Assembly (NCBI GenBank): GCA_049584715.1
Contig: JBAUYI010000342.1
Span: forward strand, 2,262 to 66,261
Direction: 5' to 3'
DNA from: Xanthobacteraceae bacterium
GTDB taxonomy: Bacteria > Pseudomonadota > Alphaproteobacteria > Rhizobiales > Xanthobacteraceae
DNA: 64,000 bases
Under the pieces are notes generated by a model, which was not told the origin of the DNA, did no database searches, and saw nothing but the letters and a program-made list of their open reading frames with translations. A program made the position numbers and the translations under genes. Below, in pieces: positions 1,631 to 52,453 of the stretch (position 1 is the stretch's first letter; each line of letters opens with the position of its first letter).

Positions 1631-1676
1631 TGGTACAGCTGGGTGGACTCGAACCACCGGCCTCTTGATCCACAGT
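1631..1676 (-). repeat. attL-type direct repeat: displaced 3' part (anticodon loop to CCA) of tRNA-His
   Basis: 46/46 identical to 52377..52422 (tggtacagctgggtggactcgaaccaccggcctcttgatccacagt). Confidence 0.9.
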
Positions 1677-1792: not shown

Positions 1793-1811
1793 GTGGTCCC
1801 GCGGTGGTTCC
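1793..1811 (+). repeat. 19-bp sub-terminal repeat (candidate integrase arm-type site), left copy
   Basis: gtggtcccgcggtggttcc is identical to 52290..52308. The left arm also carries further GGTTCC-like iterations between 1697 and 1790. Confidence 0.55.
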
Positions 1812-1829: not shown

Positions 1830-3134
1830 ATGCGAGGAAAAGCAATCACAAAGCGCAGTGTGGATGCCCTTAGGCCGGCTGACCGCGAGTACTTCGTCTG
1901 GGATCGCGACCTCAAAGGTTTTGGCTTGCGGGTACAGCCGACGGGTGAAAAATCCTACATTGTAAAATACCGTGCAGGCGCCGGCCGGAATGCGCCGACA
2001 CGACGCGTCACGCTGGGACGGGTCGGCACGCTCAGCCCGGATGAAGCCCGCAAGCTGAGCAAGGTCACGCTTGGGTCTGTCGCCCATGGACTTGATCCAG
2101 CGGCCTTGAGGTCGGCGGAACGTCGCGCGGCAACGCTCAAGGAACTCGCGGACTTGTTCCTGTCCGAGCATGTCGAAGCCAAAAGCAAGCCGGCCACGGC
2201 GGTGCACTATCGGGATATTCTGGAACGGATCGTATTGCCCCAACTCGGCACCAGGCAGGCCGAGAAAGTCGCAACGCCGGACCTCGCCCGACTACACGTT
2301 GGCATGAAGCGGCGCCCTTATCTGGCAAACCGCATGTTGGCGGTGGTGGGCAGCCTCTATGCGTTCGCCGGCAAGCGCAAGCTGGTGTCGGCGGGCTTCA
2401 ATCCGGCTCGCGGTATCGACAAATATCCGGAGAAAGGCCGCGAGCGATTTCTGACCGGTGACGAACTTGGCAGGCTCGGCGACGCAATCCGGGAAGCCGA
2501 GACGATTGGACTGCCGTGGACCGTCGACGAGACCAAGCGAACGGCCAAGCACGCGCCAAAGGAGGCAAAACGCCGGACCGTCATCGATCCGTTCGCGGCG
2601 GCCGCGATCCGGCTCCTGATCCTGACCGGTGCCCGGCTGCGCGAAATCCTTAGGCTGGAATGGCCACATGTGGATTTTGAACGCGGCCTGCTTTTGCTGC
2701 CGGACAGTAAGACTGGCGCGAAATCGATTGTCCTGAATGCACCTGCGCTCGCAGTGCTTGCTGGATTGAAACGCGTCGGTACTCACGTCATCGCCGGCCA
2801 GAGCGCTGGCGCGGACGGCGAGAAGCCGCGTGCCGACCTGAACCGACCTTGGCGTTCGATCGCTAAACGGGCCAAGCTCCCTGGCTTGCGCATTCACGAC
2901 TTGCGGCACACCCACGCGAGTTTCGGTGCCGGCGCGGGTCTCGGGTTGCCGATTCTTGGCAGACTGTTGGGCCACGTACGCGCCAGCACCACGCAGCGCT
3001 ACGCACATCTCGATACCGACCCGCTACGCCGTGCATCGGATCATATCGGCGCTCGCCTCGCAGCGGCGTTGGGCGAGCCGAATCCCAAGCCCACGCAGTC
3101 GGCAGTCGTTGCAATCCGCGCCGCGAAATCGTGA
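1830..3134 (+). CDS. int: tyrosine-type site-specific integrase (P4-like, DUF4102 N-terminal arm-binding domain)
   Basis: ATG preceded by GAAGGAGG. N-terminus FVWDRDLKGFGLRVQPTGEKSYIVKYR. C-terminal catalytic residues are in RIHDLRHTHAS ... HVRASTTQRYAHL. Confidence 0.9.
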   Translation: MRGKAITKRSVDALRPADREYFVWDRDLKGFGLRVQPTGEKSYIVKYRAGAGRNAPTRRVTLGRVGTLSPDEARKLSKVTLGSVAHGLDPAALRSAERRAATLKELADLFLSEHVEAKSKPATAVHYRDILERIVLPQLGTRQAEKVATPDLARLHVGMKRRPYLANRMLAVVGSLYAFAGKRKLVSAGFNPARGIDKYPEKGRERFLTGDELGRLGDAIREAETIGLPWTVDETKRTAKHAPKEAKRRTVIDPFAAAAIRLLILTGARLREILRLEWPHVDFERGLLLLPDSKTGAKSIVLNAPALAVLAGLKRVGTHVIAGQSAGADGEKPRADLNRPWRSIAKRAKLPGLRIHDLRHTHASFGAGAGLGLPILGRLLGHVRASTTQRYAHLDTDPLRRASDHIGARLAAALGEPNPKPTQSAVVAIRAAKS

Positions 3135-24178: not shown

Positions 24179-24191
24179 GCCGACACCCCGG

Positions 24192-25681: not shown

Positions 25682-25707
25682 GGAACCTTCGCTTTCGCTG
25701 AGGCGTT
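25682..25707 (+). promoter_or_regulatory. EcfG-type promoter (GGAAC-N17-CGTT) for the three-subunit FAD dehydrogenase operon
   Basis: ggaac-cttcgctttcgctgagg-cgtt, 49 nt upstream of the ATG at 25756. Confidence 0.6.
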
Positions 25708-26478: not shown

Positions 26479-26527
26479 GCGTTGAGGAACCGCGTGTGCC
26501 CGCGGCTACTTTGTAGGTGGAACAACA

Positions 26528-29561: not shown

Positions 29562-29603
29562 ACGCGCAACTTCGACATGGGGAGACGATGACCGCGCTCA
29601 GCG

Positions 29604-29759
29604 TCAGGCGAAGTAAATCGCGTAGACCACGGCAAAGGCGACGATGACCCCGATAAGCCCGAAGCCCAGCACGTAACGGACATTGTGGCCCGTTACCCCC
29701 TCCCGCGCCTCCTGGGTCGATAGGATAGTGCGATGCTCGTCATCGGGCGAAGCGCTCAT
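29604..29759 (-). CDS. 51-aa single-TM membrane protein, hypothetical
   Basis: Internal ATG after AGGAGA. Product is MSASPDDEHRTILSTQEAREGVTGHNVRYVLGFGLIGVIVAFAVVYAIYFA. Confidence 0.55.
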   Translation of the reverse strand: MSASPDDEHRTILSTQEAREGVTGHNVRYVLGFGLIGVIVAFAVVYAIYFA

Positions 29760-29789
29760 GGAATTTCTCCTGCATCCTGGTGCGACGAT

Positions 29790-29814
29790 AACCGAAGCGC
29801 GGACCGTGTGTTCC
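29790..29814 (-). promoter_or_regulatory. EcfG-type promoter (GGAAC-N16-GGTT) for the 51-aa membrane protein
   Basis: Top strand is AACC-gaagcgcggaccgtgt-GTTCC. The -10 lies 31 nt from the ATG. Confidence 0.55.
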
Positions 29815-29840
29815 TGGAATTGCGGCGCGGTTCCCGGAAC

Positions 29841-29865
29841 GGAACCATTGCGGCAAGCGCGGGTT
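29841..29865 (+). promoter_or_regulatory. EcfG-type promoter (GGAAC-N16-GGTT) upstream of actA (ACIII/oxidase cluster)
   Basis: ggaac-cattgcggcaagcgcg-ggtt, 88 nt upstream of the ATG at 29953. It is divergent from the site at 29790. Confidence 0.5.
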
Positions 29866-29952
29866 AGCAAAAGACATTGGCCGGAGGCGGGAGCGTCACC
29901 GGATGCACGCGAGTGTCGGGGCGATTGATCTGGTTGGCGCGGAGAGCGGCAG

Positions 29953-30606
29953 ATGCCGCAGCTATTTCCACCCTATGCCGACACGATCGCCAGATTTGTC
30001 CTCGTCGCCATTGTCGTCGTGCCATTTCTAGCTGTCGGCGTAGCCTATTGGGTGAGTGCGTCCGAATACGTGACCGGGCGGTCTATCACTTACGACCAAC
30101 CGATTCCGTTCAGCCATGCCCATCATGTCGGTGGTCTCGGTCTCGATTGCCGCTACTGCCACACCGGCGTCGAAACATCCGCCGTCGCCGGCATCCCGCC
30201 CACTCGCACCTGCATGACCTGCCACTCGCAGCTTTACACCCAGACCGCGATGCTGGCGCCGGTGCGCGAGAGTCTCGCCGACGGCCGGCCGATCCATTGG
30301 AACAAAGTCAACAAGCTACCGGATTACGTCTACTTCGATCATTCCATCCACATCGCTAAAGGCGTCGGCTGCACGACATGCCATGGCGATGTGGCGCGCA
30401 TGCCGCTGATGCGACAGGCCGCGCCGCTCACCATGAGCTGGTGTCTCGACTGCCATCGCGATCCGGCACCGAACCTTCGGCCGGTTTCCGCGGTTTTCGA
30501 TCCGGACTGGAAATTTCCGGACGACGAGGCGCGGCGCGAGCCGACGCTGGCCCACCAAGCAATCGACAACAAACATCTCACCGACTGTTCCGTGTGTCAT
30601 CGATGA
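29953..30606 (+). CDS. actA: Alternative Complex III subunit ActA, membrane-anchored pentahaem cytochrome c
   Basis: N-terminal TM helix plus five CxxCH motifs (CRYCH, CMTCH, CTTCH, CLDCH, CSVCH). Confidence 0.85.
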   Translation: MPQLFPPYADTIARFVLVAIVVVPFLAVGVAYWVSASEYVTGRSITYDQPIPFSHAHHVGGLGLDCRYCHTGVETSAVAGIPPTRTCMTCHSQLYTQTAMLAPVRESLADGRPIHWNKVNKLPDYVYFDHSIHIAKGVGCTTCHGDVARMPLMRQAAPLTMSWCLDCHRDPAPNLRPVSAVFDPDWKFPDDEARREPTLAHQAIDNKHLTDCSVCHR

Positions 30607-33422
30607 GCGACCGGCATCCTTCTTTCGACATAGACCGCCGCGCGGCGCTGAAGCTTTTTGTCAGCGGCGCGGCATTGGCGTTGGCGTCGTGCGGCCGGCC
30701 AGATCAAGAGGTTGTGCCTTATGTCGAGATGCCCGAGCGCTTGACGCCCGGTCTGCCGCTGCGCTTTGCCAGTGCGCTGCCCCTCGCCGGTTATGGCCGC
30801 GGCGTCATCGTCACCACGGTCGAGGGCCGCCCGATCAAGATCGACGGCAATCCGCGCCATCCAGCGAGCCTCGGCGCCACCGACGTGTTTGCCGAAGCGG
30901 CGGTGCTGTCGCTCTATGACCCGGATCGCTCGCAGGCGCCGCGCAGTGGCGGTCGGATTCAATCGTGGAGCGCATTCGAGGCGGCGCTGCGAGCGCGGAT
31001 CGATCAGGAAGTTTTGCGCCACGGCTCCGGCCTTGCGCTGCTGACGGGGCGCGTGACTTCGCCAACGCTGATCAAGCAGATCGGCGATCTCATGCAGCGT
31101 TTCCCGGAAGCGAAGTGGTATCGCTATGAGCCGGTCGAAGACGACGCCATCCGCGCCGGCGCCCTCCAGGCATTCGGCCGACCGTTGACGGCTATCCCGC
31201 GCTTCAACGATGCGCGCGTGGCGTTGCTGCTCGACGCCGATCCGCTCGGCTTCGGACCCGAGCAGATCAGGTTCGCCCGTGACATCATCGCTGCGCGCCA
31301 ATCGCATACGCCGGAACGGTCGCTGCGGCTCTATGCGGTGGAACCGTCATGGACACTAAGCGGCGCGCTGGCCGATCACCGCTTGGCACTCCCCCATCAC
31401 CTCATCCGCAATGTCGCGCTGGCGATTGCCGGCGCGCTTGGTACCGCTGGGCCGCAGGCCGCATTGCCGGCCGATTTGGCACAATTCACCAGATCGGCCG
31501 CGGCCGATCTTCTGGCGCAACTCGGCGCCGCGATAGTTTTGGCCGGGCCGCGGCAGCCGCCCGAAGTGCACGCGCTGTGTCACTGGATCAATGAGCAGCT
31601 CGATGCGCCGATCGATTACATCGCGCCGGTCGATCCGGTCGCGACGGGGCACGCGGAATCGCTGCGCAATCTGGCCGGCGACATTCACGCCGGCGATATC
31701 GAAACGCTGCTCGTCATCGGTGCCAACCCAGCCTATGACACGGCGGGTGAGCTCGGCTTGGCCGGCGCTATCGGCACGGTGCCGTTCTCCACGCATCTCG
31801 CCCTCTATCAGGACGAGACCGCCGCGTGCTGCACTTGGCATCTGCCGTTGTCGCATCCGCTCGAAAGCTGGTCCGATCTTCGCGCCTGTGACGGCACGGC
31901 GAGTATCGTTCAGCCGCTCATCCGGCCGCTCTACGACAGCCGCACTGCCCATGAGGTCCTTGCCGTGCTCGGCGGTGCAGTCGCGCCGTCGGCGTTCGAC
32001 CTCGTCCGCGAGCAGTGGCGCGCCACCCATGGCGCGAGCGACTTCGACGCCTGGTGGCGCCAATCGTTGCAAGACGGCGTCATCGCCGACAGCGCTTCAG
32101 CCAAAATAGCGGCGCCGTCGCCGGTATTGCCGCAGCTCGCAGCGGCCACGGCCAAAAGCGGATTTAGCCTGGCCTTGGCGCCCGATCCTTCGGTGTTCGA
32201 CGGCAGCATGGCGAACAATGCCTGGCTGCAGGAATGTCCAAAGCCATTCACCAAACAGGTCTGGGGCAACGTGCTGCATGTCTCCGAAGCCGATGCCCGC
32301 AATCTCGGCGTTGTCGACGGCGACATGGTGCGGATTACAGACGACAAGCTGATCGTCGAGGCGCCGGTCCTGGTGCAGCCCGAACAGGCGACGCGCACCA
32401 TTTCAACGACATTGGGCTATGGGCGCACCCAGGCCGGCGGCATCGGCAGCAATATCGGCTTCGATGTCTATCGACTGCGTCGCGCCGATGCACCCTGGGC
32501 AATCGACAACGTCACGGTGAGCCCTACGGGCCGCAAGCAGAATCTGCTGCGCACGCAGCATTTCTTCACACTGGACGGCGAAGCCAAGGACTTGCAGCCG
32601 CGCTTCAATCTCGCCGATTTGGCGAAAAGCGATCTCGGCCTGAACAAACCGGGCGCCCATCCGCCGACGCTCTACCCGCCGCACACTTACGACACCTACA
32701 AATGGGCGATGGCGATCGACACGGCGGCCTGCATCGGCTGCAACGCCTGCGTCATCGCCTGCCAGGCGGAGAATAATGTGCCGATCGTTGGCCCCGACGA
32801 AATCGCCGTCGGCCGCGGCATGCACTGGCTGCGCATCGACGACTATGTGGTCGACGGCCGGCCCGGTTTCTCGCCGGTGCCCTGCATGCATTGCGAGCAT
32901 GCGCCGTGCGAGCCGGTGTGTCCGGTGGCGGCCTCTGTACATGACGGCGAGGGATTGAACGTCCAGGTCTACAATCGCTGCGTCGGCACGCGATTCTGCC
33001 AGTCGAACTGCCCCTACAAAGTGCGCCGCTTCAACTTCTTCGGCTATGCCGACGGCGAGGAATATTCGAGCTACGGTGCCGACATCGTCAAAGCCGTGTT
33101 CAATCCCGACGTCACGGTACGCGGGCGCGGCGTCATGGAGAAGTGCACCTATTGCGTCCAGCGCATCAGCCGCACGCGTCGCGCCGCCGAGAAAGACAAC
33201 CGCGCGATCGGCGAGGGTGAAGTCGTTACCGCCTGTCAGGCCGCCTGTCCGACACGGGCGATCAGTTTCGGCGATCTCTCCGATCCGAAATCCCGCGTCA
33301 ACGCATTGCGCAACGAGCCGCACGCCTACGCGCTGCTCGGTAACCTGGGCACGCGGCCACGCACCAGCTATCTCGCCCGGCTGCAAAATCCAAATCCGGA
33401 TTTCGGCAAGGTGCAGTCATGA
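30603..33422 (+). CDS. actB: ACIII subunit ActB (fused molybdopterin-like B1 + 4Fe-4S ferredoxin B2 domains)
   Basis: ATGA overlap with actA. Leader DRRAALKLFVSGAALALASCG. C-terminal Fe-S motifs CIGCNACVIAC, CMHCEHAPCEPVCP and CVGTRFCQSNCP. Confidence 0.85.
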   Translation: MSDRHPSFDIDRRAALKLFVSGAALALASCGRPDQEVVPYVEMPERLTPGLPLRFASALPLAGYGRGVIVTTVEGRPIKIDGNPRHPASLGATDVFAEAAVLSLYDPDRSQAPRSGGRIQSWSAFEAALRARIDQEVLRHGSGLALLTGRVTSPTLIKQIGDLMQRFPEAKWYRYEPVEDDAIRAGALQAFGRPLTAIPRFNDARVALLLDADPLGFGPEQIRFARDIIAARQSHTPERSLRLYAVEPSWTLSGALADHRLALPHHLIRNVALAIAGALGTAGPQAALPADLAQFTRSAAADLLAQLGAAIVLAGPRQPPEVHALCHWINEQLDAPIDYIAPVDPVATGHAESLRNLAGDIHAGDIETLLVIGANPAYDTAGELGLAGAIGTVPFSTHLALYQDETAACCTWHLPLSHPLESWSDLRACDGTASIVQPLIRPLYDSRTAHEVLAVLGGAVAPSAFDLVREQWRATHGASDFDAWWRQSLQDGVIADSASAKIAAPSPVLPQLAAATAKSGFSLALAPDPSVFDGSMANNAWLQECPKPFTKQVWGNVLHVSEADARNLGVVDGDMVRITDDKLIVEAPVLVQPEQATRTISTTLGYGRTQAGGIGSNIGFDVYRLRRADAPWAIDNVTVSPTGRKQNLLRTQHFFTLDGEAKDLQPRFNLADLAKSDLGLNKPGAHPPTLYPPHTYDTYKWAMAIDTAACIGCNACVIACQAENNVPIVGPDEIAVGRGMHWLRIDDYVVDGRPGFSPVPCMHCEHAPCEPVCPVAASVHDGEGLNVQVYNRCVGTRFCQSNCPYKVRRFNFFGYADGEEYSSYGADIVKAVFNPDVTVRGRGVMEKCTYCVQRISRTRRAAEKDNRAIGEGEVVTACQAACPTRAISFGDLSDPKSRVNALRNEPHAYALLGNLGTRPRTSYLARLQNPNPDFGKVQS

Positions 33423-34804
33423 CGGTGGCGACTGTCATGCGCGAGGACACGCCAGCCGTGGCAACGCGCTGGATTTTGCCGAAAGCGCGCGATTTTGAAA
33501 CCGTCAACGCACTGATCGCCGCACCGTTATTCGACCGCGGTTCTTGGACGTGGCGGGCCTGGTGGATTGGCTTCGCCGTAAGCCTGGCGCTGACGATGGC
33601 ATTCCTCGTCGCAGTGCTTTTGGTGTTTACCCGCGGTATCGGCATCTGGGGCGTCAACACCACCGTCGTCTGGGGCTTTGCCATCGCCAATTACGTCTGG
33701 TGGATCGGCATTGGCAATGCCGGCACCTTGATCTCGGCGATGCTGCTGTTGATGCGGCAGAAGTGGCGTGCCTCGACCAATCGCTTCGCCGAAGCGATGA
33801 CGCTGTTCGCCGCCGCCATCGCCGGCATTTTTCCGATCATTCACCTTGGCCGGCCGCTCTATTTCTACTGGCTTACGCCCTATCCCAATACGATGATGCT
33901 GTGGCCGCAATGGCGTAGCGCGTTGATCTGGGATTTCTGGGCGATCCTCAGTTATATCCTGTTCTCAATCCTGTTCTGGTATGTCGGTCTCATTCCCGAT
34001 CTCGCAACCATGCGGGATCGCGCCAAAACCAAAGCGCCACGCCTGATCTACGGCGCCTTGGCGCTCGGCTGGCGCGGCGCGGCGCGGCATTGGCACGCTT
34101 ACGAGACGCTGCATCTCGCACTCGCCTGTCTCGGTGTCCCACTCGTAGTCTCGCTGCACAGCGTCGTCGGCATGGATTTCGCCGCTAGCCTAATGCCGGG
34201 TTGGCAGGAAACGATCTTCCCGCCCTATTTCGTCATCGGCGCGATGTATTCCGGCTTCGCCATGGTGGTGTGCCTCGCCGCTCTGGTGCGTTGGGGCTTT
34301 TGCATGCAAAGCCTCATCACGGTGGCGCATTTCGACGTCATGGCGAAAGTCATGCTGGCGGCCTCGATCATCATGGGGCTGTCCTACGCCAGCGAATGGT
34401 TCAATGCCTGGTACGGCGGCGAGCATGTCGACCGCAGCTTGGTGGCGTTCCAGTTTACCGGCGCTTATGCGCCGTTGTTTTGGACGCTACTGCTCTGCAA
34501 TGTCGCCATCCCGCAGGCGTTTTGGTTAACCGCCGTGCGCGACAATATCGTCGCGGTGTTCGCCATCGCGGTGCTGATCAATATCGGGATGTGGCTCGAG
34601 CGCATCCTGATCGTCTGGAACACGCTGTCACACGATTACATGCCGGGCATGTGGCGCCTGTTCATCCCGACCATTTGGGATTGGATCACGACGCTCGGCT
34701 CGCTCGGGCTATTCACACTGATGTTCCTCATTTTCGTGCGCCTCGTGCCGGTGGTGTCGATGCACGAGGTGCGCAAGCTCGTCGCCGAGGAGGCCGCGTC
34801 ATGA
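33419..34804 (+). CDS. actC: ACIII subunit ActC (NrfD/PsrC-like quinol-interacting membrane subunit)
   Basis: 461-aa polytopic protein with an ATGA overlap, in the expected position after actB. Confidence 0.8.
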   Translation: MTVATVMREDTPAVATRWILPKARDFETVNALIAAPLFDRGSWTWRAWWIGFAVSLALTMAFLVAVLLVFTRGIGIWGVNTTVVWGFAIANYVWWIGIGNAGTLISAMLLLMRQKWRASTNRFAEAMTLFAAAIAGIFPIIHLGRPLYFYWLTPYPNTMMLWPQWRSALIWDFWAILSYILFSILFWYVGLIPDLATMRDRAKTKAPRLIYGALALGWRGAARHWHAYETLHLALACLGVPLVVSLHSVVGMDFAASLMPGWQETIFPPYFVIGAMYSGFAMVVCLAALVRWGFCMQSLITVAHFDVMAKVMLAASIIMGLSYASEWFNAWYGGEHVDRSLVAFQFTGAYAPLFWTLLLCNVAIPQAFWLTAVRDNIVAVFAIAVLINIGMWLERILIVWNTLSHDYMPGMWRLFIPTIWDWITTLGSLGLFTLMFLIFVRLVPVVSMHEVRKLVAEEAAS

Positions 34805-35325
34805 CTGGCCTCCTGCTCGCCGAATTTTCCGACCAGAGGCGCTTTGTCGAGGCGGCACGGCGCGCCAGCGGTGCGCGCTACCAGCTGCTCGACGCTTACA
34901 CGCCATTCCCGGTCGATGAAATCTTCGAACTCCTCGAACATCGCCGCAGCCACATTCGTCTCGCCATGTTTATCGGCGGCGTCACCATGGCAGCGCTGGC
35001 CTACGCAACCGAATATTTCTCAGCGGCGATCGATTATCCCTACAACAGCGGCGGTCGGCCGTTCGATGCCTGGCCGGCCTTCATGCTGGTGCCGTTCGCC
35101 ACCGGCATCCTCGTTGCCGCGATTGCCGGATTTGCCACGTTCCTGATCGAGACCGGCTTGCCGCGGTTGCACGACCCTCTGTTCGCGGTCGTGGGTTTCG
35201 AACGCGCCAGCCAAGACCGTTTCGTGTTGGCGATCGAGCGGCCCGACGCGAACGAGGAACGGCGTCACGTGATCGATCTTCTGCGCGGCGCCGGCGCCGC
35301 GGCAATCCGTGAGGTCGAGCCGTGA
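34801..35325 (+). CDS. actD: ACIII subunit ActD (DUF3341)
   Basis: ATGA overlap. MTGLLLAEFSD...LLDAYTPFPVDE plus two TM helices. Confidence 0.75.
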   Translation: MTGLLLAEFSDQRRFVEAARRASGARYQLLDAYTPFPVDEIFELLEHRRSHIRLAMFIGGVTMAALAYATEYFSAAIDYPYNSGGRPFDAWPAFMLVPFATGILVAAIAGFATFLIETGLPRLHDPLFAVVGFERASQDRFVLAIERPDANEERRHVIDLLRGAGAAAIREVEP

Positions 35326-35855
35326 CGCGCGGCGTCATCGTATTCGTCACGCTTGTAGCGTGCGGCTGTGCGCTTGCCGGCTGCGATCTCAGCATGACTG
35401 AGCAGCGCAAGCTGACGACTTATGCGCCGACCTCGCTTTGGCACGACGGCACGTCCGCCCGCCCGCTGCCGGATAACGTGGTGGCGCAGGGCGACGTCGA
35501 ACGCGCCACCGCTGCCAAAATACCGCCACCCGTCACCGCAGCGCTGCTGGCGCGCGGCCACGAGCGTTACGGCATTTTCTGTTCGCCGTGCCACGGCCTG
35601 GCGGGCGACGGCGACGGCGTCATCGTCGCCCACGGTTTTCCGGCGCCGCCGTCCTATCACATTGACCGCCTTGCCGCGGCGCCGGCGCAGCATTTCTACG
35701 ATGTGATGACCGAGGGCTATGGCGTGATGTTTTCCTATGCGGATCGCCTCGACCCGCACGACCGCTGGGCCGTCGCCGCCTATATCCGCGCGCTACAGCT
35801 GTCCCGCCGCGCCACCGTTGCCCAAATTCCCAAGGCGAGCGAGCGAATCAAATGA
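35322..35855 (+). CDS. actE: ACIII subunit ActE, monohaem lipoprotein cytochrome c
   Basis: GTGA overlap, lipobox LAGC, and a single CSPCH. Confidence 0.8.
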   Translation: MTRGVIVFVTLVACGCALAGCDLSMTEQRKLTTYAPTSLWHDGTSARPLPDNVVAQGDVERATAAKIPPPVTAALLARGHERYGIFCSPCHGLAGDGDGVIVAHGFPAPPSYHIDRLAAAPAQHFYDVMTEGYGVMFSYADRLDPHDRWAVAAYIRALQLSRRATVAQIPKASERIK

Positions 35856-36916
35856 TCCTGCCGCACCACCAACGCAAGGCGATCGGTGGCGCGGCCTTTG
35901 TCGCGGCGGCTGGGGCGGCAGTGCTGCTTGTCGTGGCCGCCGTGTTCGATGCCAAAGGCGCCGCAGCCGGCTGGCTCATCGGCTTTGCGTTCTGGGCCCA
36001 AATCCTAGCTGGCTGCCTGGCGCTGCTCATGATCCACCGGCTGACCGGCGGGCGCTGGGGTGAACTCGCCGCGCCCATTATCGGGCCGACCGCAGCTGCA
36101 ATGCCGCTGCTCATTGTGCTCGCCATTCCGCTGTTCATCGCCATTCCGGCGCTCTATCCGTGGTCGCACCATCCGGATGCGATCAAGCCGGATGTGTTGT
36201 CGTATTATCTGAACACGCCCGGCTTCATTGTTCGCACCGTGCTGGCGCTCGCTGGTTGGACGGCGCTGGCGATCTTGCTGCCGCGCAATGCCGGGGCGCG
36301 TGGCCGGCTGCTCGCCGCGCTTGGTCTCGTCTTCCACGCCGTCGTCATCAGCAGCGTATCGATCGACTGGTATTTGTCGCTCGAAGCGCCGTTCACGTCA
36401 TCGTCGTTTGGCGCCAGCGTCGCGATCTCCTCACTGGTCGCCGCACTCGCCTGGACGGCAGTCTTGGCGCCCGCGCCGGCCGACGATCCCGCCATCGGCG
36501 ATCTTGGCGCTTTGCTGCTCGCGACCGTGCTCGGCATCACCTACATCGATTTTATGGCGGTGCTGGTGATCTGGTACGGCGACCTGCCGCGCGAAGAGGC
36601 CTGGTTTGTCGCGCGCGACAGCTTACCTTGGACGGCTTTGGCGGTCGCGGCTTTTATTCTTGTTTCCCTGCTGCCGATCTTGGCGCTGCTGCTGTCGCGC
36701 GTGCGCAATGCGCGCAAGCCCCTGCGCGCGGTCGGACTCTGCATACTCGTTGGGCTCGCTTGCTATGACGCTTATCTAATCGCGCCGCCGTCAGGTGCGC
36801 TGACGCTGTTGAGCGGACTCATCGCCATCGTCGGTATCGGACTTGGCTATTGCGGAGTCTTGTTGAGCGGCGTGACGGCACTGTTCACATCGCGGGAGCC
36901 GGCCGATGTCCGCTGA
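35852..36916 (+). CDS. actF: ACIII subunit ActF (second NrfD-like membrane subunit)
   Basis: ATGA overlap. 354-aa polytopic protein. Confidence 0.75.
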   Translation: MILPHHQRKAIGGAAFVAAAGAAVLLVVAAVFDAKGAAAGWLIGFAFWAQILAGCLALLMIHRLTGGRWGELAAPIIGPTAAAMPLLIVLAIPLFIAIPALYPWSHHPDAIKPDVLSYYLNTPGFIVRTVLALAGWTALAILLPRNAGARGRLLAALGLVFHAVVISSVSIDWYLSLEAPFTSSSFGASVAISSLVAALAWTAVLAPAPADDPAIGDLGALLLATVLGITYIDFMAVLVIWYGDLPREEAWFVARDSLPWTALAVAAFILVSLLPILALLLSRVRNARKPLRAVGLCILVGLACYDAYLIAPPSGALTLLSGLIAIVGIGLGYCGVLLSGVTALFTSREPADVR

Positions 36917-37289
36917 AGAACACATCCATTACATCCCGGAGTCGCCTGCGGTCGACAGCAAAGCCGTGCTCCTGTGCGCACTCGGCGCGCTTATCTTGCT
37001 CGCCGGCACCATTGCCGGTTTCCACGAGGTCTACCGGCGCGGCGTGCCGGTCAAAGACGTGCCAGCCCCGCAAGCCTTTCCGCAGCCGCGCGTCGTTACC
37101 AGCCAAGCCGAGTTCGAGGAACGCCAGCGTCTCACCGCCGCGCAACAGAAGCGCCTCGAAACCTGGCGCTGGGCGAATGATCAGCACACCGTGGTGCAGA
37201 TCCCGATCGAGCGCGCCATGGAGATTTTGACGCAAATGGGCGCCGCAGCCTACGACCCGTTGTTGCCGATGCCGGAGAAGCAGCCGTGA
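36906..37289 (+). CDS. single-TM 127-aa protein, possible ActG equivalent
   Basis: 11-nt overlap with actF and one TM helix (AVLLCALGALILLAGTIAGF). The assignment rests only on size and position. Confidence 0.5.
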   Translation: MSAEEHIHYIPESPAVDSKAVLLCALGALILLAGTIAGFHEVYRRGVPVKDVPAPQAFPQPRVVTSQAEFEERQRLTAAQQKRLETWRWANDQHTVVQIPIERAMEILTQMGAAAYDPLLPMPEKQP

Positions 37290-38086
37290 AATCTCCGATG
37301 GCAACAGCGATCTTTTTGCTTGCGTTTTGTGCTGTAGTGCCCGTGCCGGCAATGGCCGGCTTCACATCCGCGCAGCTTGCCGCGATCTCGGCTGCGCCGC
37401 CGCCGAATGCCACGCTGCCGCTTGAGCTCGGCTTCCGCAACGAAAGTGGAAAGCCGTCAACGCTCGCGGGCGCCATCGGCGGCGTGCCGGCCATCGTCAT
37501 TTTTGCCGATTATACCTGCCACACGCTGTGCGGTCCGATCGTGGAGTTTGCTGTTGCCGGCCTTAAGCGGACCGGATTGAGACCCGGCGTCGACTACCGT
37601 TTGATTATAATCGGACTCAACCCCAAGGATGGTCTCGACAGCGCGCGTGCGATGCGCGCCACGCACATCGAGGCAGCGGATCCGATCGGTCGCGCCGCGG
37701 TTTTCTTGAGCGGCGGCGACGCCGACATCCGCGCCGCAACGACGGCTGTCGGTTTCAACTACGCCTATGATGCCGAGCACGATCAATATGCGCATCCGGC
37801 CGCGGCCTACATAATCGATGCCGCCGGCCGCGTGCGGCGGGTGCTCTCGCCGCTTGGACTGGACGGCGGCGATCTGAGGCTTGCTCTGGTTGATGCCGGC
37901 GATGGCGCTGTCGGCAGTTTTGCCGATCGCATCCACCTGCTTTGCTATGGCTACGACCCGGTGCGCGGCATCTATACCGAGCGCATCACCACCATGCTGG
38001 AAATCGCCGCCGGGACGACACTGCTGGCGATGGCCAGCGGCATTTTCATCATGACCTGGCGCGAACGGCGGAGGGCGGCGTCATGA
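37286..38086 (+). CDS. SCO1/SenC-family copper chaperone (thioredoxin fold)
   Basis: GTGA overlap, FADYTCHTLCGPIV (CxxxC), and a C-terminal TM helix. Confidence 0.8.
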   Translation: MKSPMATAIFLLAFCAVVPVPAMAGFTSAQLAAISAAPPPNATLPLELGFRNESGKPSTLAGAIGGVPAIVIFADYTCHTLCGPIVEFAVAGLKRTGLRPGVDYRLIIIGLNPKDGLDSARAMRATHIEAADPIGRAAVFLSGGDADIRAATTAVGFNYAYDAEHDQYAHPAAAYIIDAAGRVRRVLSPLGLDGGDLRLALVDAGDGAVGSFADRIHLLCYGYDPVRGIYTERITTMLEIAAGTTLLAMASGIFIMTWRERRRAAS

Positions 38087-39036
38087 CGCTCAGCCAATTC
38101 GTTACGCCGGCTTCCGATTATGCGACCCGTGTCGACCATCTGTTCTATCTGCTCTCGGTGATCTCCGGCGTTGTCGTCCTAGTGGTCACCGGACTGATCG
38201 TTGTCTTCTTCGCGATCTATCACCGCGGCTCGCCCATGCCGCGCGGCGAATTGCCGGAGCGCAAGAGCCATGAGATCGAAATCGGCTGGACGGTGGCGAC
38301 GCTGTTCACCTTCCTGTTCATCTTCTGGTGGGCGGCGTCGGATCAACTCACCGCGCTGACGCAGCCCAAAGACGCGCTCGAAATCCATGTCGTGGCCAAA
38401 CAATGGATGTGGCGTATCCAGCATCCAAGCGGCGCGCGAGAAATCGACGAGTTGCATGTGCCGGCCGACACCGATGTGCGGCTGGCAATGACGTCGCAGG
38501 ACGTCATCCACGACCTTTATCTGCCGGCGCTCCGGCTCAAGCAGGACATCCTGCCGGACCGCTATACCTATCTGTGGTTCAAGGCCAACAAGACCGGTGT
38601 CTTTCATCTGACCTGCGCCGAATTTTGCGGCACCGACCATTCGGTGATGGCGGGCCGATTGGTGATCGTGACGCCCGCCGATTATGCGCGCTGGACCGCG
38701 GCGCAGCCGCAAGGCGACGATCTCGCCCACCAGGGCGAAGTTTTGTTCCGCTCGCTCGGCTGCTCGGGATGCCATACGCCAGGCTCGACCGTGCACGCAC
38801 CCGACCTGCACGGCGTTTACGGCCGTCCGGTCCACCTGTCCGACGGCCGCACCGTCATTGCCGACGAAGCCTATCTGCGTGATTCGATCATGCTGCCGAA
38901 CAAGGACATCGTTGCCGGCTTTGCGCCGGTCATGCCGAGCTTTGCCGGCACCGCGAGCGAGGGCCAGCTGGTCGAGCTGCTGGCCTATTTGAAGTCGCTC
39001 ACGACGCAGCCGCAGGCCGACGGAGCATCGCCATGA
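38083..39036 (+). CDS. ctaC: cytochrome c oxidase subunit II with fused cytochrome c domain (caa3-type)
   Basis: ATGA overlap, CuA site HLTCAEFCGTDHSVM, and C-terminal CSGCH. Confidence 0.9.
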   Translation: MTLSQFVTPASDYATRVDHLFYLLSVISGVVVLVVTGLIVVFFAIYHRGSPMPRGELPERKSHEIEIGWTVATLFTFLFIFWWAASDQLTALTQPKDALEIHVVAKQWMWRIQHPSGAREIDELHVPADTDVRLAMTSQDVIHDLYLPALRLKQDILPDRYTYLWFKANKTGVFHLTCAEFCGTDHSVMAGRLVIVTPADYARWTAAQPQGDDLAHQGEVLFRSLGCSGCHTPGSTVHAPDLHGVYGRPVHLSDGRTVIADEAYLRDSIMLPNKDIVAGFAPVMPSFAGTASEGQLVELLAYLKSLTTQPQADGASP

Positions 39037-40712
39037 CCGACGTCACGCTGCCCTTCGTGCCGCCGCTCGAAAGCGGAAGAGGAAGCTACCTCGATGAGGG
39101 CCACACTTTGATGTCGTGGCTCGCCACTACCGATCACAAGCGCATCGCCATTCTCTACGCGCTGTCGATCACCGTGTTCTTCTTCATCGGCGGCATCGCC
39201 ATCGCGCTGGTGCGGCTCGAGCTCGTCAGTCCAACCGGGCTGCTGCTGACGTCCGACGAATATAATCGCCTGTTCACGATTCACGGCATCATCATGGTGT
39301 GGTTCTTCCTGGTGCCGTCGATCCCCGCCACAATGGGAAATTTCATCCTGCCGCTGATGATCGGCGCGCCGGATGTGGCCTTTCCGCGCCTCAATCTGCT
39401 CTCCTGGTATCTCTATGTGATCGGCGCGGCATTCACCGTCTATGTGCTGCTGTCGGGCGGCGTCGATACCGGCTGGACGTTCTATCCGCCGTTCTCGTCC
39501 GAATATTCCCACTCCAACGTAGTCGCCGCGGCGGCCGGCGTGTTCGTGGTCGGATTTTCGTCGATCGCCACCGGCGTGAATTTCATGGCCACCATCCACA
39601 TGCTGCGTGCGCCCGGCATGACTTGGTTCCGGCTGCCGCTGTTCGCCTGGTCGATGTATGTCGTCAGCATGGTGATGGTGCTGGCGACGCCAGTGCTCGC
39701 CATGTCGCTGTTGCTCATTACTGCCGAGCGCTGGCTGCACCTGCCGATTTTCGATCCGGCGGCCGGCGGCGATCCGTTGCTGTTCCAGCACCTGTTCTGG
39801 TTCTACAGCCATCCCGCCGTCTACATCATGATCCTACCGGCGATGGGCGTGGTCTCGGAAGTGTTCGCATGCTTCGCGCGGCGCCGCGTGTTCGGTTACG
39901 CCTTCATGGTCTTTTCGCTTCTGACCATCGGCGTGATCGGCTTCATGGTCTGGGGCCACCACATGTTCGTCGCCGGTCAATCGCCGTTGGCCAACCTCAT
40001 CTTCTCATTCCTGTCGTTCATCGTCGCGGTGCCGTCCGCTATCAAAGTCTTCAACTGGACGGCAACGCTCTATCGCGGCCATATCGGCTTCGAGGCGCCG
40101 ATGATCTATGCGCTCGGCTTTCTCGGCCTGTTCACCATCGGTGGGCTGACCGGACTGTTCCTCGCCTCGGTGCCGATCGACGTCGCGGCGACAGACTCTT
40201 ACTTCGTGGTCGCGCATTTCCACACCATCATGGTCGGCGGCACGGTGTCGGCGTTCATGGCCGGCATCCATTATTGGTGGCCGAAGGTGACGGGCCGTCT
40301 CTACAACGAGTTCTGGGCGCAGTTTGCCGCCATCACCATGTTCCTCGGCTTCAACGTGACGTTCCTGCCGCAGTTCGTCATGGGCTGGCTCGGGATGCCA
40401 CGCCGCTACCACTATTACCCGGACGTTTTTCAGATCTGGCACATCCTCTCCAGCGGCGGTGCGGTGATCCTCGCCGTCGCCTATCTGATGCCGCTCGTCT
40501 ATCTCGGCTGGTCTTTATTCTACGGCGAACAGGCGCCGGACAATCCGTGGCAGGCGACCGGCCTCGAATGGCAGACTACGTCACCACCGCCGAAACAGAA
40601 CTTTTTCCGGCCGCCGCGCATTGGTGTCGATCCGTACGACTACCACGACTTCGGCCGCGCCGAGGAGACGGGCGGCGAGGGACGCGCGCAGCCGCAGGGT
40701 GGACAGACATGA
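39033..40712 (+). CDS. ctaD: cytochrome c oxidase subunit I
   Basis: 559 aa with FWFYSHPAVYIMILPAMG and HHMF motifs. ATGA overlap. Confidence 0.95.
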   Translation: MTDVTLPFVPPLESGRGSYLDEGHTLMSWLATTDHKRIAILYALSITVFFFIGGIAIALVRLELVSPTGLLLTSDEYNRLFTIHGIIMVWFFLVPSIPATMGNFILPLMIGAPDVAFPRLNLLSWYLYVIGAAFTVYVLLSGGVDTGWTFYPPFSSEYSHSNVVAAAAGVFVVGFSSIATGVNFMATIHMLRAPGMTWFRLPLFAWSMYVVSMVMVLATPVLAMSLLLITAERWLHLPIFDPAAGGDPLLFQHLFWFYSHPAVYIMILPAMGVVSEVFACFARRRVFGYAFMVFSLLTIGVIGFMVWGHHMFVAGQSPLANLIFSFLSFIVAVPSAIKVFNWTATLYRGHIGFEAPMIYALGFLGLFTIGGLTGLFLASVPIDVAATDSYFVVAHFHTIMVGGTVSAFMAGIHYWWPKVTGRLYNEFWAQFAAITMFLGFNVTFLPQFVMGWLGMPRRYHYYPDVFQIWHILSSGGAVILAVAYLMPLVYLGWSLFYGEQAPDNPWQATGLEWQTTSPPPKQNFFRPPRIGVDPYDYHDFGRAEETGGEGRAQPQGGQT

Positions 40713-41341
40713 CCGACCTCGCCCGCGCGCTCCAGGAGCCTTGGCCCGATCTGCGGCTGCAGCGCCAAGGCGTCGGCCTCGGCATGTGGATGTTCCTGGC
40801 GAGCGAAGTGTTGTTCTTCTCCGGCTTGTTCATCACCTATGCGGTTTACCGCAGCTTCAATGCCGAGGCTTTCCGTATCGCCGGCGCGCATACCCAGATC
40901 ATCTATGGCTCGATCAACACCGCGCTCCTTCTCACCAGCAGCCTGACCATGACGGTTGCCTTGCGTGCCGCGACCGCGCGGCTGCGCGACTGGACGCTGG
41001 TCTGTCTCGGCCTGACCGCAGCGCTCGGGCTCGCGTTCCTCACTTGCAAAGGCCTGGAATATCGCGCCGATCTTGCGGAGCACCTCGTGCCTGGACCCGG
41101 CTTTCCCCTGTCGCCGCCGGCGACGCAAATGTTCTGGGGGCTTTATTGGATCATGACCGGCATTCACGCCGTTCACTTGACTGCGGGCATCGGTGTCGTT
41201 GCGGTTGTTTTCGTCTTATTCGCGCGCCGCGTCATTCCGGTGCAAGGCTCGACCATGGAAGGCGTCGCCATCTATTGGCACTTCGTCGATTGCGTCTGGC
41301 TCGTTCTCTTTCCGCTGCTCTATCTGGCGGGCCGGTCATGA
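40709..41341 (+). CDS. ctaE: cytochrome c oxidase subunit III
   Basis: Last 210 codons of ORF 39299..41341 starting MTDLARAL. ATGA overlap. It has five or more TM helices and YWHFVD. Confidence 0.85.
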   Translation: MTDLARALQEPWPDLRLQRQGVGLGMWMFLASEVLFFSGLFITYAVYRSFNAEAFRIAGAHTQIIYGSINTALLLTSSLTMTVALRAATARLRDWTLVCLGLTAALGLAFLTCKGLEYRADLAEHLVPGPGFPLSPPATQMFWGLYWIMTGIHAVHLTAGIGVVAVVFVLFARRVIPVQGSTMEGVAIYWHFVDCVWLVLFPLLYLAGRS

Positions 41342-41625
41342 TCCGACAAAGCACCCGGGCGCTGTGGCAAGGCCCGGCAATCGCCTGGCTCGCGCTGCTG
41401 GTCCTGTTCGCCGGCACTCTCGGCTCGGCCTACCTGCCGCTCGGCGCCGGCAATGTTGCTGTCAATCTTCTCATCGCCGCCATCATGATCGCCGTGCTGG
41501 CGACCTTCCTCATGGATTTGCGGCACGCGACCATGCTGACGCGCATCGTCGCCGCGGCCGGACTGTTCTGGGTCGTCCTGATGTTCGCGCTGACGTTCAG
41601 TGACTATCTCTCCCGCCATTATTGA
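41338..41625 (+). CDS. cytochrome c oxidase subunit IV (prokaryotic small subunit)
   Basis: ATGA overlap. 95 aa with 3 TM helices. Confidence 0.65.
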   Translation: MIRQSTRALWQGPAIAWLALLVLFAGTLGSAYLPLGAGNVAVNLLIAAIMIAVLATFLMDLRHATMLTRIVAAAGLFWVVLMFALTFSDYLSRHY

Positions 41626-41637
41626 TCGAGAGCGGCC

Positions 41638-42450
41638 ATGTCGAAGCAAAAGAGACGCACCGAACGCGAAGTCGAAGACATCGAGGAACGATCGACGCCC
41701 AGCACGCCGGTCATCTACGAAGTCGTCTGCCGCCTCGGCGAGGAAGAGATGGCGCGGCCGGCGGTGTCGCTGTGGTGGTCGGGCGTAGCCGCCGGCCTGT
41801 CCATAAGCTTTTCGCTATTGGCGCAAGCCATCCTGCTCACCCATCTGCCTGACGCGCCGTGGCGGCCGCTCGTTGTCAGCTTCGGTTATTCGCTCGGCTT
41901 CGTCATGGTGGTGCTGTCGCGCCAGCAGCTGTTCACCGAGACGACAATTACCGCCGTATTGCCGGTCATGGCCGCGCTCACCCCCGGCAACCTGTGGAAG
42001 CTCGCGCGCATGTGGGGCATCGTGCTGCTGGCGAATTTTGCCGGCACGCTGTTCGCGGCGCTGTTCTGTACGTTCACGCCAGTGCTCACGCCGGAGTTAA
42101 AAAGCGGGATGCTGGAGATCAGCCGGCAACTCATGACGCCGGGCTGGTTGGAAATGGTCTTCAAGGGAATTTCGTCCGGGTTTTTGATGGCCGCGATGGT
42201 CTGGCTGTTGCCGAGCGCGGAGTCGGCCCAATTCCACGTCACGGTGCTGATGACCTGGCTCATTTCCGCCGGCGGCTTTATGCACGTCGTCGCCGGCAGC
42301 ATCGAAGCCTTCCTGCTGGTGCTCAACGGCGACCTGCAATGGCTCTCGATGATCGACGGTTTCATGGTTCCGGTTCTCATCGGCAACATTATCGGCGGCA
42401 CCGCTTTGTTCGCCTTGATCGCTTACGCGCAAGTCATGAAAGAAATTTAG
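41638..42450 (+). CDS. formate/nitrite transporter (FNT) family channel, YfdC-like
   Basis: 270 aa with 6 TM helices and LVVSFGYSLGFVMVVLSRQQLFTE. It starts 12 nt after the oxidase subunit IV gene. Confidence 0.75.
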   Translation: MSKQKRRTEREVEDIEERSTPSTPVIYEVVCRLGEEEMARPAVSLWWSGVAAGLSISFSLLAQAILLTHLPDAPWRPLVVSFGYSLGFVMVVLSRQQLFTETTITAVLPVMAALTPGNLWKLARMWGIVLLANFAGTLFAALFCTFTPVLTPELKSGMLEISRQLMTPGWLEMVFKGISSGFLMAAMVWLLPSAESAQFHVTVLMTWLISAGGFMHVVAGSIEAFLLVLNGDLQWLSMIDGFMVPVLIGNIIGGTALFALIAYAQVMKEI

Positions 42451-42480
42451 CCACTCGGACTGTGGGAGCGTTCCAACTAT

Positions 42481-42506
42481 GGAACTGCGGACCACCGGTT
42501 CGCGTT
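42481..42506 (+). promoter_or_regulatory. EcfG-type promoter (GGAAC-N17-CGTT) upstream of hypothetical ORF 42526..42837
   Basis: ggaac-tgcggaccaccggttcg-cgtt. The -35 is the right arm of GTTCC-N6-GGAAC. Confidence 0.55.
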
Positions 42507-42525
42507 GTGATTTGTTACAATTGCT

Positions 42526-42837
42526 GTGAGTCCGATGCCATTGCGATCGCGGAAAAAGTCCAAAAGCCCCTTGCGGGATTTGGCGGATTTCCGCGCCAGC
42601 CTCTGGGAAACACTAGCAAAGAACGCGAAAGGCCTAACCGGCTTACAGGTCGTCCGAGCTCTCCGCGAGGTCTCGGACGATATTTATCATGCCGGAATCG
42701 ACGCCGCTTACACGACGACCAAAGTCCGCGATCCGCAAAACCTCGCCGATGCTTGGGATCTGACCTGGCTGACGGCTCTCAGCGTCAAGCTACTGCATCT
42801 TCAGAGGCCAAGATCGCACCATAAGCCGCCGCAGTAG
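42526..42837 (+). CDS. hypothetical protein (start may be the ATG at 42535)
   Basis: 103-aa ORF directly downstream of a consensus stress promoter. No SD and no motif were found. Confidence 0.4.
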   Translation: MSPMPLRSRKKSKSPLRDLADFRASLWETLAKNAKGLTGLQVVRALREVSDDIYHAGIDAAYTTTKVRDPQNLADAWDLTWLTALSVKLLHLQRPRSHHKPPQ

Positions 42838-42873
42838 GGCGGATTCCACGCAAATCAGCTTAGCGGAGTTCCC

Positions 42874-42898
42874 GGAACCGCGATTGCGCGGCGCCGTT
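42874..42898 (+). promoter_or_regulatory. EcfG-type promoter (GGAAC-N16-CGTT) upstream of the PaoABC-like operon
   Basis: ggaac-cgcgattgcgcggcgc-cgtt, 77 nt from the ATG at 42975. It is preceded by an inverted GTTCC. Confidence 0.6.
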
Positions 42899-42974
42899 AG
42901 AGTCTTGCAATGCGCCCCGATGGGGACGCGCAATGATTTGGCGAAAGCCAACGGTTCATGTCCGAGGATGTCTG

Positions 42975-43507: not shown

Positions 43508-43509
43508 CC

Positions 43510-44508: not shown

Positions 44509-44509
44509 A

Positions 44510-52289: not shown

Positions 52290-52308
52290 GTGGTCCCGCG
52301 GTGGTTCC
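52290..52308 (+). repeat. 19-bp sub-terminal repeat, right copy
   Basis: Identical to 1793..1811, and 69 nt inside the right att repeat. Confidence 0.55.
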
Positions 52309-52376: not shown

Positions 52377-52422
52377 TGGTACAGCTGGGTGGACTCGAAC
52401 CACCGGCCTCTTGATCCACAGT
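52377..52422 (-). repeat. attR-type direct repeat (within intact tRNA-His)
   Basis: 46/46 identical to 1631..1676. Confidence 0.9.
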
Positions 52423-52453
52423 CAAGCGCTCTAACCAACTGAGCTACAGCTGC
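52377..52453 (-). tRNA. tRNA-His (anticodon GTG), 77 nt with encoded CCA
   Basis: Hand-folded cloverleaf: acceptor GCAGCTG/CAGCTGT, D stem GCTC/GAGC, anticodon stem CTTGA/TCAAG with loop CTGTGGA, T stem GGTGG/CCACC, A73, CCA. Confidence 0.9.

Follow-up and report, generated by a model that had tools for sequence, protein, structure and literature searches.

An alternative complex III–caa3 oxidase gene cluster behind a putative EcfG-type promoter on a predicted tRNA-His island of a Xanthobacteraceae bacterium

The window analysed here is a stretch of 64,000 nucleotides from a Xanthobacteraceae bacterium (assembly GCA_049584715.1, contig JBAUYI010000342.1, positions 2,262 to 66,261 of the forward strand). 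It contains a chain of 12 genes for an alternative complex III (ACIII), a SCO copper chaperone and a caa3 oxidase, which had been noticed in a preliminary description of this DNA made from the letters alone. The identity of the encoded proteins, the motif upstream of the first gene and the mobile context of the chain were evaluated by profile searches and by comparison with related loci.

Gene chain and encoded subunits

The features of the chain and of its downstream end are the following:

29953..30606 (+): actA, pentahaem cytochrome c (five CxxCH) whose N-terminus forms a transmembrane (TM) helix
30603..33422 (+): actB, fused molybdopterin-like (B1) and four-iron-sulfur-cluster (B2) subunit with a twin-arginine signal
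33419..34804 (+): actC, NrfD/PsrC-type quinol-binding membrane subunit (PF03916, E = 1.4e-19)
34801..35325 (+): actD, ACIII-specific subunit (PF11821, E = 1.7e-47 over the full length)
35322..35855 (+): actE, monohaem cytochrome c with lipobox LAGC and haem motif CSPCH
35852..36916 (+): actF, second large membrane subunit, no Pfam match
36906..37289 (+): actG, 127 amino acids (aa), one TM helix, conserved C-terminal FPxPR...IPIxRAM motif
37286..38086 (+): sco, divergent SCO1/SenC-type copper chaperone with signal peptide, CHTLC...H170 and a C-terminal TM helix
38083..39036 (+): oxidase subunit II, with CuA site CAEFCGTDHSVM and a cytochrome c (CSGCH) fused at the C-terminus
39033..40712 (+): oxidase subunit I of the A2 type, helix VI with YSHPAV
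40709..41341 (+): oxidase subunit III (PF00510)
41338..41625 (+): oxidase subunit IV, 95 aa, weak COX4_pro match (E = 0.0013), orthologues annotated as subunit IV family
41638..42450 (+): formate/nitrite transporter (FNT)-family channel gene, 12 nt past coxIV
42486..42504 (+): terminator-like hairpin downstream of the FNT gene, its tail rich in T

The 12 open reading frames (ORFs), which were read directly, are co-oriented on the forward strand from 29953 to 41625 and leave no intergenic space. Eight of the 11 junctions are 4-nt ATGA overlaps (actA/B, B/C, C/D, E/F, sco/coxII, coxII/I, I/III and III/IV) and two are GTGA overlaps of the same length (actD/E and actG/sco). The remaining one, actF/actG, spans 11 nt, with the actG ATG at 36906 and the actF stop at 36914-36916. 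Twelve chained genes with ten 4-nt overlaps and one of 11 nt had been described before, and both coordinates and junctions were found to be so. The start codons of the chain were inferred from the sequence; the GTG start of actE is backed by the signal peptide and lipobox that this start restores. Such stop/start overlaps would couple translation along the chain, keeping the subunit stoichiometry.

For comparison, 85 loci were fetched around ActB homologues (L-numbers denote fetched loci, of which L001-L018 are alphaproteobacterial). The chain of overlaps, the 11-nt one of ActF/ActG among them, proved common to essentially all alphaproteobacterial loci and was not found in other phyla.

ActB (939 aa) shows Fer4_7, Fer4_11 and Molydop_binding domains in Pfam, together with the RR motif and four Cys-cluster motifs. 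Its nearest solved relatives are the ActB chains of four ACIII structures, 6lod, 8k9e, 6f0k and 6btm (E = 1e-260 to 4e-132; 1e-260 for 6lod_B and 3e-209 for 6f0k_B). ActF matched the ActF chains of the same four structures, with E values of about 7e-17 for 6f0k_F and 6lod_F. The protein of 127 aa, previously listed only as a single-TM ORF, does have one TM helix and can be assigned further. When its sequence was searched singly against PDB and Pfam nothing meaningful was obtained. Its family is conserved between actF and sco in Alphaproteobacteria and Acidobacteriota, and the family profile matches the ActG chain 8k9e_G (E = 1e-6), its only solved relative; the protein is therefore taken as ActG.

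A similar procedure was necessary for the SCO protein. The 266-aa protein alone gave no match in Pfam or PDB searches, while the profile of its 27 positional orthologues matched Sco structures (3me7, E = 6e-19; 1on4, E = 1e-7), and PF02630 was matched by 22 of the 27. The triad C78, C82 and H170 (C-x3-C...H) is invariant across the orthologue alignment. The earlier naming as a SCO chaperone is thus upheld, with the correction that it is recognisable through the orthologue profile and not from the window protein itself.

Subunit II scored 154.9 bits with the CoxB model TIGR02866, over the cut-off of 147.7, and carries the full CuA motif H...CAEFCGTDHSVM. Subunit I matched COX1 with E = 4e-140 and reached 657.6 bits with CtaD_CoxA, just below the cut-off of 670.75. 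It carries FWFYSHPAVYIM, the YSHPxV signature of helix VI, instead of the GHPEV of A1 oxidases; this definition of the A2-type motif is that of Pereira et al. 2001, as cited in PMC6431628. The 12 genes are almost certainly actABCDEFG, a SCO gene and an A2-type caa3 oxidase in the order II(c)-I-III-IV, that is, an ACIII-caa3 module.

The unit had been delimited at these 12 chained genes. Since the FNT gene starts 12 nt after coxIV and the hairpin stands behind it, the transcription unit probably comprises 13 genes. The FNT gene is kept at the same place in L001-3 and L007. The lack of accompanying haem A/O synthase genes had also been regarded as unusual. Neither haem A/O synthase (UbiA, COX15) nor Cox11/CtaG domains were detected in the approximately 65 window ORFs scanned with Pfam, so the statement is true for them. 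It is expected and uninformative, because the caa3 enzyme is an accessory oxidase and the host presumably has an aa3 oxidase elsewhere; the haem A synthase genes (CtaA, CtaB) presumably lie elsewhere in the genome as well.

Upstream region and EcfG-type motif

Upstream of actA a gap of 193 nt (29760-29952) contains two divergent motifs of the form GGAAC-N16-GGTT, and beyond it lies a gene for a small peptide:

29604..29759 (-): gene for a 51-aa single-TM peptide, divergent from actA
29790..29814 (-): GGAAC-N16-GGTT, directed at the 51-aa gene, whose ATG follows after 30 nt
29841..29865 (+): GGAAC-N16-GGTT, directed at actA, whose ATG follows after 87 nt; predicted EcfG-type operon promoter

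Two back-to-back motifs in the sole upstream gap, one facing each gene, had been reported for this locus, and both were located at these positions. The 51-aa peptide belongs to no Pfam family; it has conserved counterparts in L001-3 (82%) and, at about 50%, in L006/L007.

The consensus of EcfG is GGAAC-N16-CGTT, in which the AAC is nearly invariant and the -10 element flexible (PMC7083833, PMC8103513). The motif at actA resembles the promoters of the EcfG/PhyR/NepR general stress response (PMC7083833, PMC3892343) in its GGAAC -35 element, a spacer of 16-17 nt and an xGTT -10 element, and copies of it stand before typical stress genes of the window. It differs from them in that the -10 element of the window is GGTT, and a respiratory complex III/IV operon as a regulon member was not found in the searchable literature.

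When GGAAC-N16/17-SGTT was counted, 11 occurrences were found in the window against about 1.7 expected, about 10 of them on the island described below. Eight copies at least are correctly oriented towards a plausible gene start located 20-110 nt further on. The genes behind them are two DUF892 paralogues, a pyrophosphatase gene, h323, a dehydrogenase operon, the 51-aa gene, actA and a molybdoenzyme operon. The density is 1.7 motifs per 10 kb in the window and 1.29 in alphaproteobacterial ACIII loci, compared with 0.24 in those of other phyla and 0.16 in loci of the same lineage outside the island. The neighbouring set of promoters is conserved whole in L006 and L007.

The comparison of related loci revealed the motif 58-115 nt before actA in nine alphaproteobacterial lineages (the window, L001, L004, L006, L007, L008, L011, L016 and L017), which include Bradyrhizobium sp. 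ISRA443, Xanthobacteraceae, Pseudolabrys, Rhizomicrobium and Roseiarcus. In these the -10 element is mostly the canonical CGTT. In an alignment of the upstream regions the invariant letters are those of the -35 and -10 elements only. None of about 60 non-alphaproteobacterial loci has the motif before actA, and no sigma-70-like site was found in 29400-43200. These results provide strong comparative evidence that the motif upstream of actA is an ECF (extracytoplasmic function)-type promoter, most likely of the EcfG type. Transcription of the ACIII-caa3 operon is probably EcfG-dependent.

Several observations weigh against EcfG control. The -10 element in the window is GGTT and not the canonical CGTT, and the GGAAC -35 box is shared by many ECF groups (PMC8103513). 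No phyR, nepR or ecfG gene is present in the window. The motif is missing at the ACIII loci of Roseomonas, Roseicella, Methylobacterium frigidaeris and L009/L010, and for three of the 11 motifs in the window there is no convincing gene behind or an overlap with a terminator-like hairpin. On these grounds the module could be ACIII-caa3 and its motif no EcfG promoter, the operon being driven by other ECF sigma factors or by oxygen/redox regulators; the enrichment of the motif would then reflect a different regulon or local sequence bias. The response of acidobacterial ACIII-caa3 superoperons to the O2 level (PMC8407424) and a Crp/Fnr regulator gene near the plasmid copy of the unit in Bradyrhizobium japonicum point in the same direction. 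We consider this explanation unlikely. The relatives have the canonical CGTT at the same position. The same motif stands ahead of the DUF892 genes, the DUF1328 neighbour, the pyrophosphatase gene and other stress-type genes of the window, a set conserved in L006/L007. Moreover, it is confined to Alphaproteobacteria, the sole class with EcfG according to PMC3892343.

The three unplaced motifs are located at 16844-16868 (+), 49362-49337 (-) and 42481-42506 (+), the third overlapping the hairpin behind the FNT gene. Each could be a chance match, stand ahead of a small gene without annotation or drive an antisense transcript.

No link of ACIII, cytochrome oxidase or terminal oxidase with the general stress response, EcfG or PhyR was found in open-access papers. 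The proposal of a respiratory branch wired into the general stress response, made in the preliminary description, gains from the conservation of the motif across alphaproteobacterial genera and stays an inference from sequence.

The probable tRNA-His island

The cluster lies between an intact tRNA gene and a distant copy of its 3' end, with the following features:

1631..1676 (no strand assigned): left attachment (att) repeat, 46 nt identical to the 3' end of tRNA-His
1793..1811 (+): 19-nt repeat GTGGTCCCGCGGTGGTTCC, likely arm-type integrase site, left end (window repeat search)
1830..3134 (+): P4-type tyrosine integrase, 434 aa (Arm-DNA-bind_3 and Phage_integrase)
52290..52308 (+): second copy of the 19-nt arm-type repeat, right end (window repeat search)
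52377..52453 (-): intact tRNA-His, whose 3' 46 nt (52377-52422) are the right att repeat

This tRNA-His is the only tRNA gene in the window according to ARAGORN and Rfam, and apart from it no other structured RNA was detected there by Rfam at gathering thresholds. The gene and the distal 46-nt copy are 50.7 kb apart. The 19-nt repeat GTGGTCCCGCGGTGGTTCC occurs twice in the window, against 0.04 expected. Near-identical copies were found elsewhere next to homologues of the integrase (L166-L168) and at 87 nt inside tRNA-His (L102, L103, L110 and L161); the repeats likely fit arm-type sites of one island family.

The window was compared with 80 metagenome loci that surround the histidine kinase located right of tRNA-His. 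Empty sites were recognised in L086, L088, L090, L092-L094, L097 and L153, which align from exactly 52376/52377 rightwards. These relatives share about 90% nucleotide identity with the window, and left of tRNA-His they carry a mutually conserved, different flank, here called X. The 62 nt to the left of the distal repeat (1569-1630) resemble the native spacer 3' of tRNA-His in the relatives. Integrase homologues of 85-89% identity adjoin the same tRNA-His fragment near X-like DNA and are accompanied by unrelated cargo. The ACIII-caa3 cluster is absent from the tRNA-His locus of the island-free relatives; its presence there had been named as a refuting finding. A third, degenerate copy of the att repeat, as in tandem islands, was looked for in the window and none was found.

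Taken together, att repeats, integrase, arm repeats, empty sites and retained native spacer make ~1677-52376 a probable integrative island of 50.7 kb, placed at the 3' end of tRNA-His, and the ACIII-caa3 unit one part of its cargo. The earlier characterisation as cargo of a tRNA-bounded island is therefore right as to island and cargo, while the boundaries are one tRNA and one tRNA fragment rather than two tRNAs. As in P4-type tRNA islands there are a tyrosine integrase with Arm-DNA-bind_3, a direct repeat of the tRNA 3' end, terminal arm repeats and strain-variable cargo. The differences are that the integrase of the window stands at the end distal to the intact tRNA and that stress and respiratory genes dominate the cargo. 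No conjugation or replication genes were recognised on the island.

Some features fit the island less well. The outer left flank, beyond the retained spacer, holds a DUF892 gene and not the flank X of the relatives. The block DUF892-h323-dehydrogenase-51-aa gene-ACIII-caa3-FNT is kept in more distant Xanthobacteraceae metagenome-assembled genomes (L006/L007), and because of this conservation it is possibly older than the island. The difference in GC content is small (0.61 for the island and 0.647 for the right flank), too small to serve as evidence. An alternative built on these points is that the ACIII-caa3 block is an old chromosomal neighbourhood beside tRNA-His, and that repeat and integrase come from a smaller element moved by rearrangement or DUF892 recombination. 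The DUF892/h323/DUF1328 genes are indeed chromosomal neighbours of tRNA-His in L089, L091, L092 and L096. This history appears improbable, since the family-specific 19-nt arm repeat is found at both ends in the positions seen in other members of the island family, the similarity to four island-free relatives ends exactly at the tRNA 3' end, the native spacer is kept beside the distal repeat and there is no third repeat copy that would point to a smaller element. In addition, ACIII-caa3 modules are demonstrably present on mobilizable and conjugative plasmids in related genera.

Genes of the DUF892/h323/DUF1328 group occur inside the island as well as at the chromosomal sites just named. In L089, L091 and L096 (about 6.5-8.8 kb) the order is X-DUF892-h323-DUF1328-phasin, without tRNA-His, and in L092 (1-880) it is h323-DUF1328-native spacer-tRNA-His. 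With several such arrangements among the relatives, the tRNA-His locus is, judged from these loci, a rearrangement hotspot. The two DUF892 paralogues of the window, at 833-1451 (outside the island) and 23571-24199 (inside), share 89% nucleotide identity, and their EcfG-type promoters, GGAACGGACCGGGTCGCCACACGTT and GGAACGGACGTGGTCGCCACACGTT, are near-identical. The two copies could mediate recombination between island and chromosome.

Besides the respiratory genes, the predicted island carries further cargo, listed here with a repeat found outside it:

25682..25707 (+): EcfG-type motif, followed by the operon of a GMC flavoprotein dehydrogenase with three subunits (25756-29561)
42874-46792: xanthine-dehydrogenase/CoxSML-type molybdoenzyme (2Fe-2S, FAD and molybdenum-cofactor subunits), EcfG-type motif ahead
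9521-10009 (-) and 47953-48366 (+): two PRC-barrel proteins
46954-47532 (+): MgtC
10011-11012 (+): DUF1206
13805-14725 (-): DUF6328
19379-20431 (+): ATP-dependent (LigD-type) DNA ligase
62927-63226 and 63475-63774: 300-nt direct repeat, 72% identity, at the right end of the window

The subunits of this membrane dehydrogenase, located just upstream of the ACIII-caa3 unit, are a 'gluconate 2-dehydrogenase subunit 3' protein with a Tat (twin-arginine translocation) signal, a GMC flavoprotein and a multihaem cytochrome c. The GMC dehydrogenase is linked to ACIII-caa3 in L001-3, L006 and L007, and GMC and subunit 3 genes are found on the Nitrobacter plasmid discussed below. It is a possible quinone-reducing feeder. 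In L007 a similar motif is present downstream of the FNT gene, and no homologue of the molybdoenzyme was found in the approximately 0.6 kb of sequence beyond. The PRC-barrel, MgtC, DUF1206, DUF6328 and ligase genes are of stress or dormancy type. The 300-nt direct repeat, which is also present in relatives, probably represents tandem paralogous small genes.

Known relatives and proposed working

The ActB protein has thousands of relatives, the closest being metagenome contigs of 92% identity; an exact match to it was absent from the assembly collection searched. The order ActABCDEF-(ActG)-SCO-II-I-III-IV was observed in about 60 of the fetched loci, which span at least seven phyla and represent Alphaproteobacteria, Acidobacteriota, Planctomycetota, Verrucomicrobiota, Gammaproteobacteria, Gemmatimonadota and Latescibacterota. 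In the literature this arrangement is known as COX operon type a-I, which has SCO genes and A2 oxidases (PMC6431628, citing Refojo 2010 and Degli Esposti 2014), and as the 'ACIII-A2 caa3 superoperon' (Trojan 2021, PMC8407424). The window shares with the latter the gene content and order actABCDEF(G)-SCO-II(c)-I-III-IV and the A2-type subunit I. The alphaproteobacterial clade is distinguished by an overlap at every junction, an EcfG-type motif ahead and an appended FNT gene, and the unit of this window by its location on a tRNA-His island.

The chain is also annotated, with all 12 genes, on plasmid 1 of Nitrobacter hamburgensis X14 (NC_007959) and on the conjugative plasmid pS11L-1 of B. japonicum (NZ_CP126014). 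These copies have the identical chain with its 4-nt and 11-nt overlaps, a gene annotated 'SCO family protein', and GMC dehydrogenase, thiamine pyrophosphate (TPP)-enzyme or Ku genes nearby. They differ in being carried by a plasmid and not by an integrative island, in the absence of the FNT gene and in an extra first gene ahead of actA, which is ydeP/fdhF-like or a small gene annotated 'sensory rhodopsin transducer'. An EcfG-type motif precedes this extra gene in both (L170, 4647-4889, in pS11L-1; L169, 6563-6587, in N. hamburgensis plasmid 1), and in the B. japonicum plasmid it is again one of a divergent pair. Because about 60 loci and the annotated Nitrobacter and Bradyrhizobium plasmids share the gene order, the ACIII-caa3 module itself is ordinary, with descriptions of it already in print. 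Among the features listed in the preliminary description, gene order, SCO gene and chain of overlaps are accordingly not unusual; they belong to a published superoperon and, in the case of the overlaps, to the whole clade.

Among characterised complexes, the ACIII of Rhodothermus marinus (PDB 6F0K; PMC5928083) has homologues of ActA-F (ActB, E = 3e-209; ActF, E = 7e-17) and a single-TM ActG, and a direct transfer from ActE to subunit IIc would be expected here by analogy. The host of the window differs in being a mesophilic alphaproteobacterium, and the regulation differs too. A homologue of ActH did not turn up, in an analysis with no search aimed at it. The ACIII structures 6LOD/6LOE and 8K9E include the nearest solved ActB (E = 1e-260), and 8k9e_G is the one solved relative of the 127-aa protein. 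These presumably come from phototrophic Chloroflexota (Roseiflexus and related), whose photosynthetic or respiratory chains would use ACIII and lack this fused oxidase operon.

A different CISM-type (complex iron-sulfur molybdoenzyme) complex, whether Qrc, Psr, Nrf or Dsr-like, is effectively refuted as the product of the act genes and extremely improbable: the sub-threshold matches of ActA, ActB and ActC to the NCBIfam models QrcA, QrcC, QrcB, DsrO, NrfC and DsrP reflect shared modules, and the objection fails because the scores with all Qrc, Nrf, Dsr and Ttr models fall well short of the curated cut-offs (QrcA 80 of 180 bits, QrcC 187 of 400, QrcB 84 of 440, NrfC 92 of 378, DsrP 34 of 350), while the ActD-specific family PF11821 is present, ActB, ActF and ActG have ACIII chains as their best solved relatives, and the act genes run into those of the caa3 oxidase. 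The original identification as an ACIII-caa3 quinol-to-oxygen module thus withstood the comparison with other CISM families, on the evidence of ActB, ActD and ActF.

Taking module, promoter and context together, we regard a complete quinol-to-oxygen branch with an EcfG-type promoter, carried as island cargo, as the best and a likely explanation of the locus. The act, SCO and oxidase genes would be transcribed, probably with the FNT gene, as one unit from the promoter at 29841-29865. By analogy with the solved structures of ACIII and of ACIII with its oxidase, quinol would be oxidised at ActC and electrons would pass through the iron-sulfur clusters of ActB and the haems of ActA to the lipid-anchored ActE. 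From there they would be transferred directly to the cytochrome c domain of subunit II, to CuA, haem a and the haem a3-CuB site, where O2 is reduced; a physical ACIII-caa3 supercomplex has been observed (PMC5928083). On the same analogy neither a bc1 complex nor a soluble cytochrome c would be required, and protons would be translocated in ActC/F and in the oxidase. The SCO protein would act as a dedicated CuA chaperone for the oxidase. The GMC dehydrogenase may feed the quinone pool, giving a self-contained, stress-induced chain, and the island would have been inserted into the 3' end of tRNA-His by its P4-type integrase.

A broader proposal is offered tentatively. In Hyphomicrobiales and some other Alphaproteobacteria, ACIII-caa3 may belong to the EcfG regulon, and the 50.7-kb element may be a mobile 'stress-respiration island' pre-wired by about 10 promoters. 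Its cargo would then consist of a periplasmic GMC-type dehydrogenase, ACIII, the caa3 oxidase, a molybdoenzyme and stress proteins. If this is true, one horizontal transfer would equip a recipient, which like every alphaproteobacterium has the sigma factor already, with an entire electron transport chain that is stress-induced and independent of bc1. The island would illustrate how acquired genes can be 'plug-and-play' by using promoters for a sigma factor conserved throughout the class.

As a piece of bioenergetics the module adds nothing new, being one more copy of a published superoperon. Two points of its context are of interest: its carriage by a tRNA-His island, which is well supported, and the control of ACIII-caa3 by EcfG in one alphaproteobacterial clade, which is plausible and apparently unreported. 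Two cultured strains, Nitrobacter hamburgensis X14 and Bradyrhizobium japonicum S11L-Bj, have the unit on a plasmid. Should the promoter prediction be right, this would be the first link found that connects a dedicated complex III/IV branch with the general stress response of Alphaproteobacteria, and the role of ACIII-caa3 in bacteria that possess the bc1-aa3 pathway would be respiration in stressed or growth-arrested cells.

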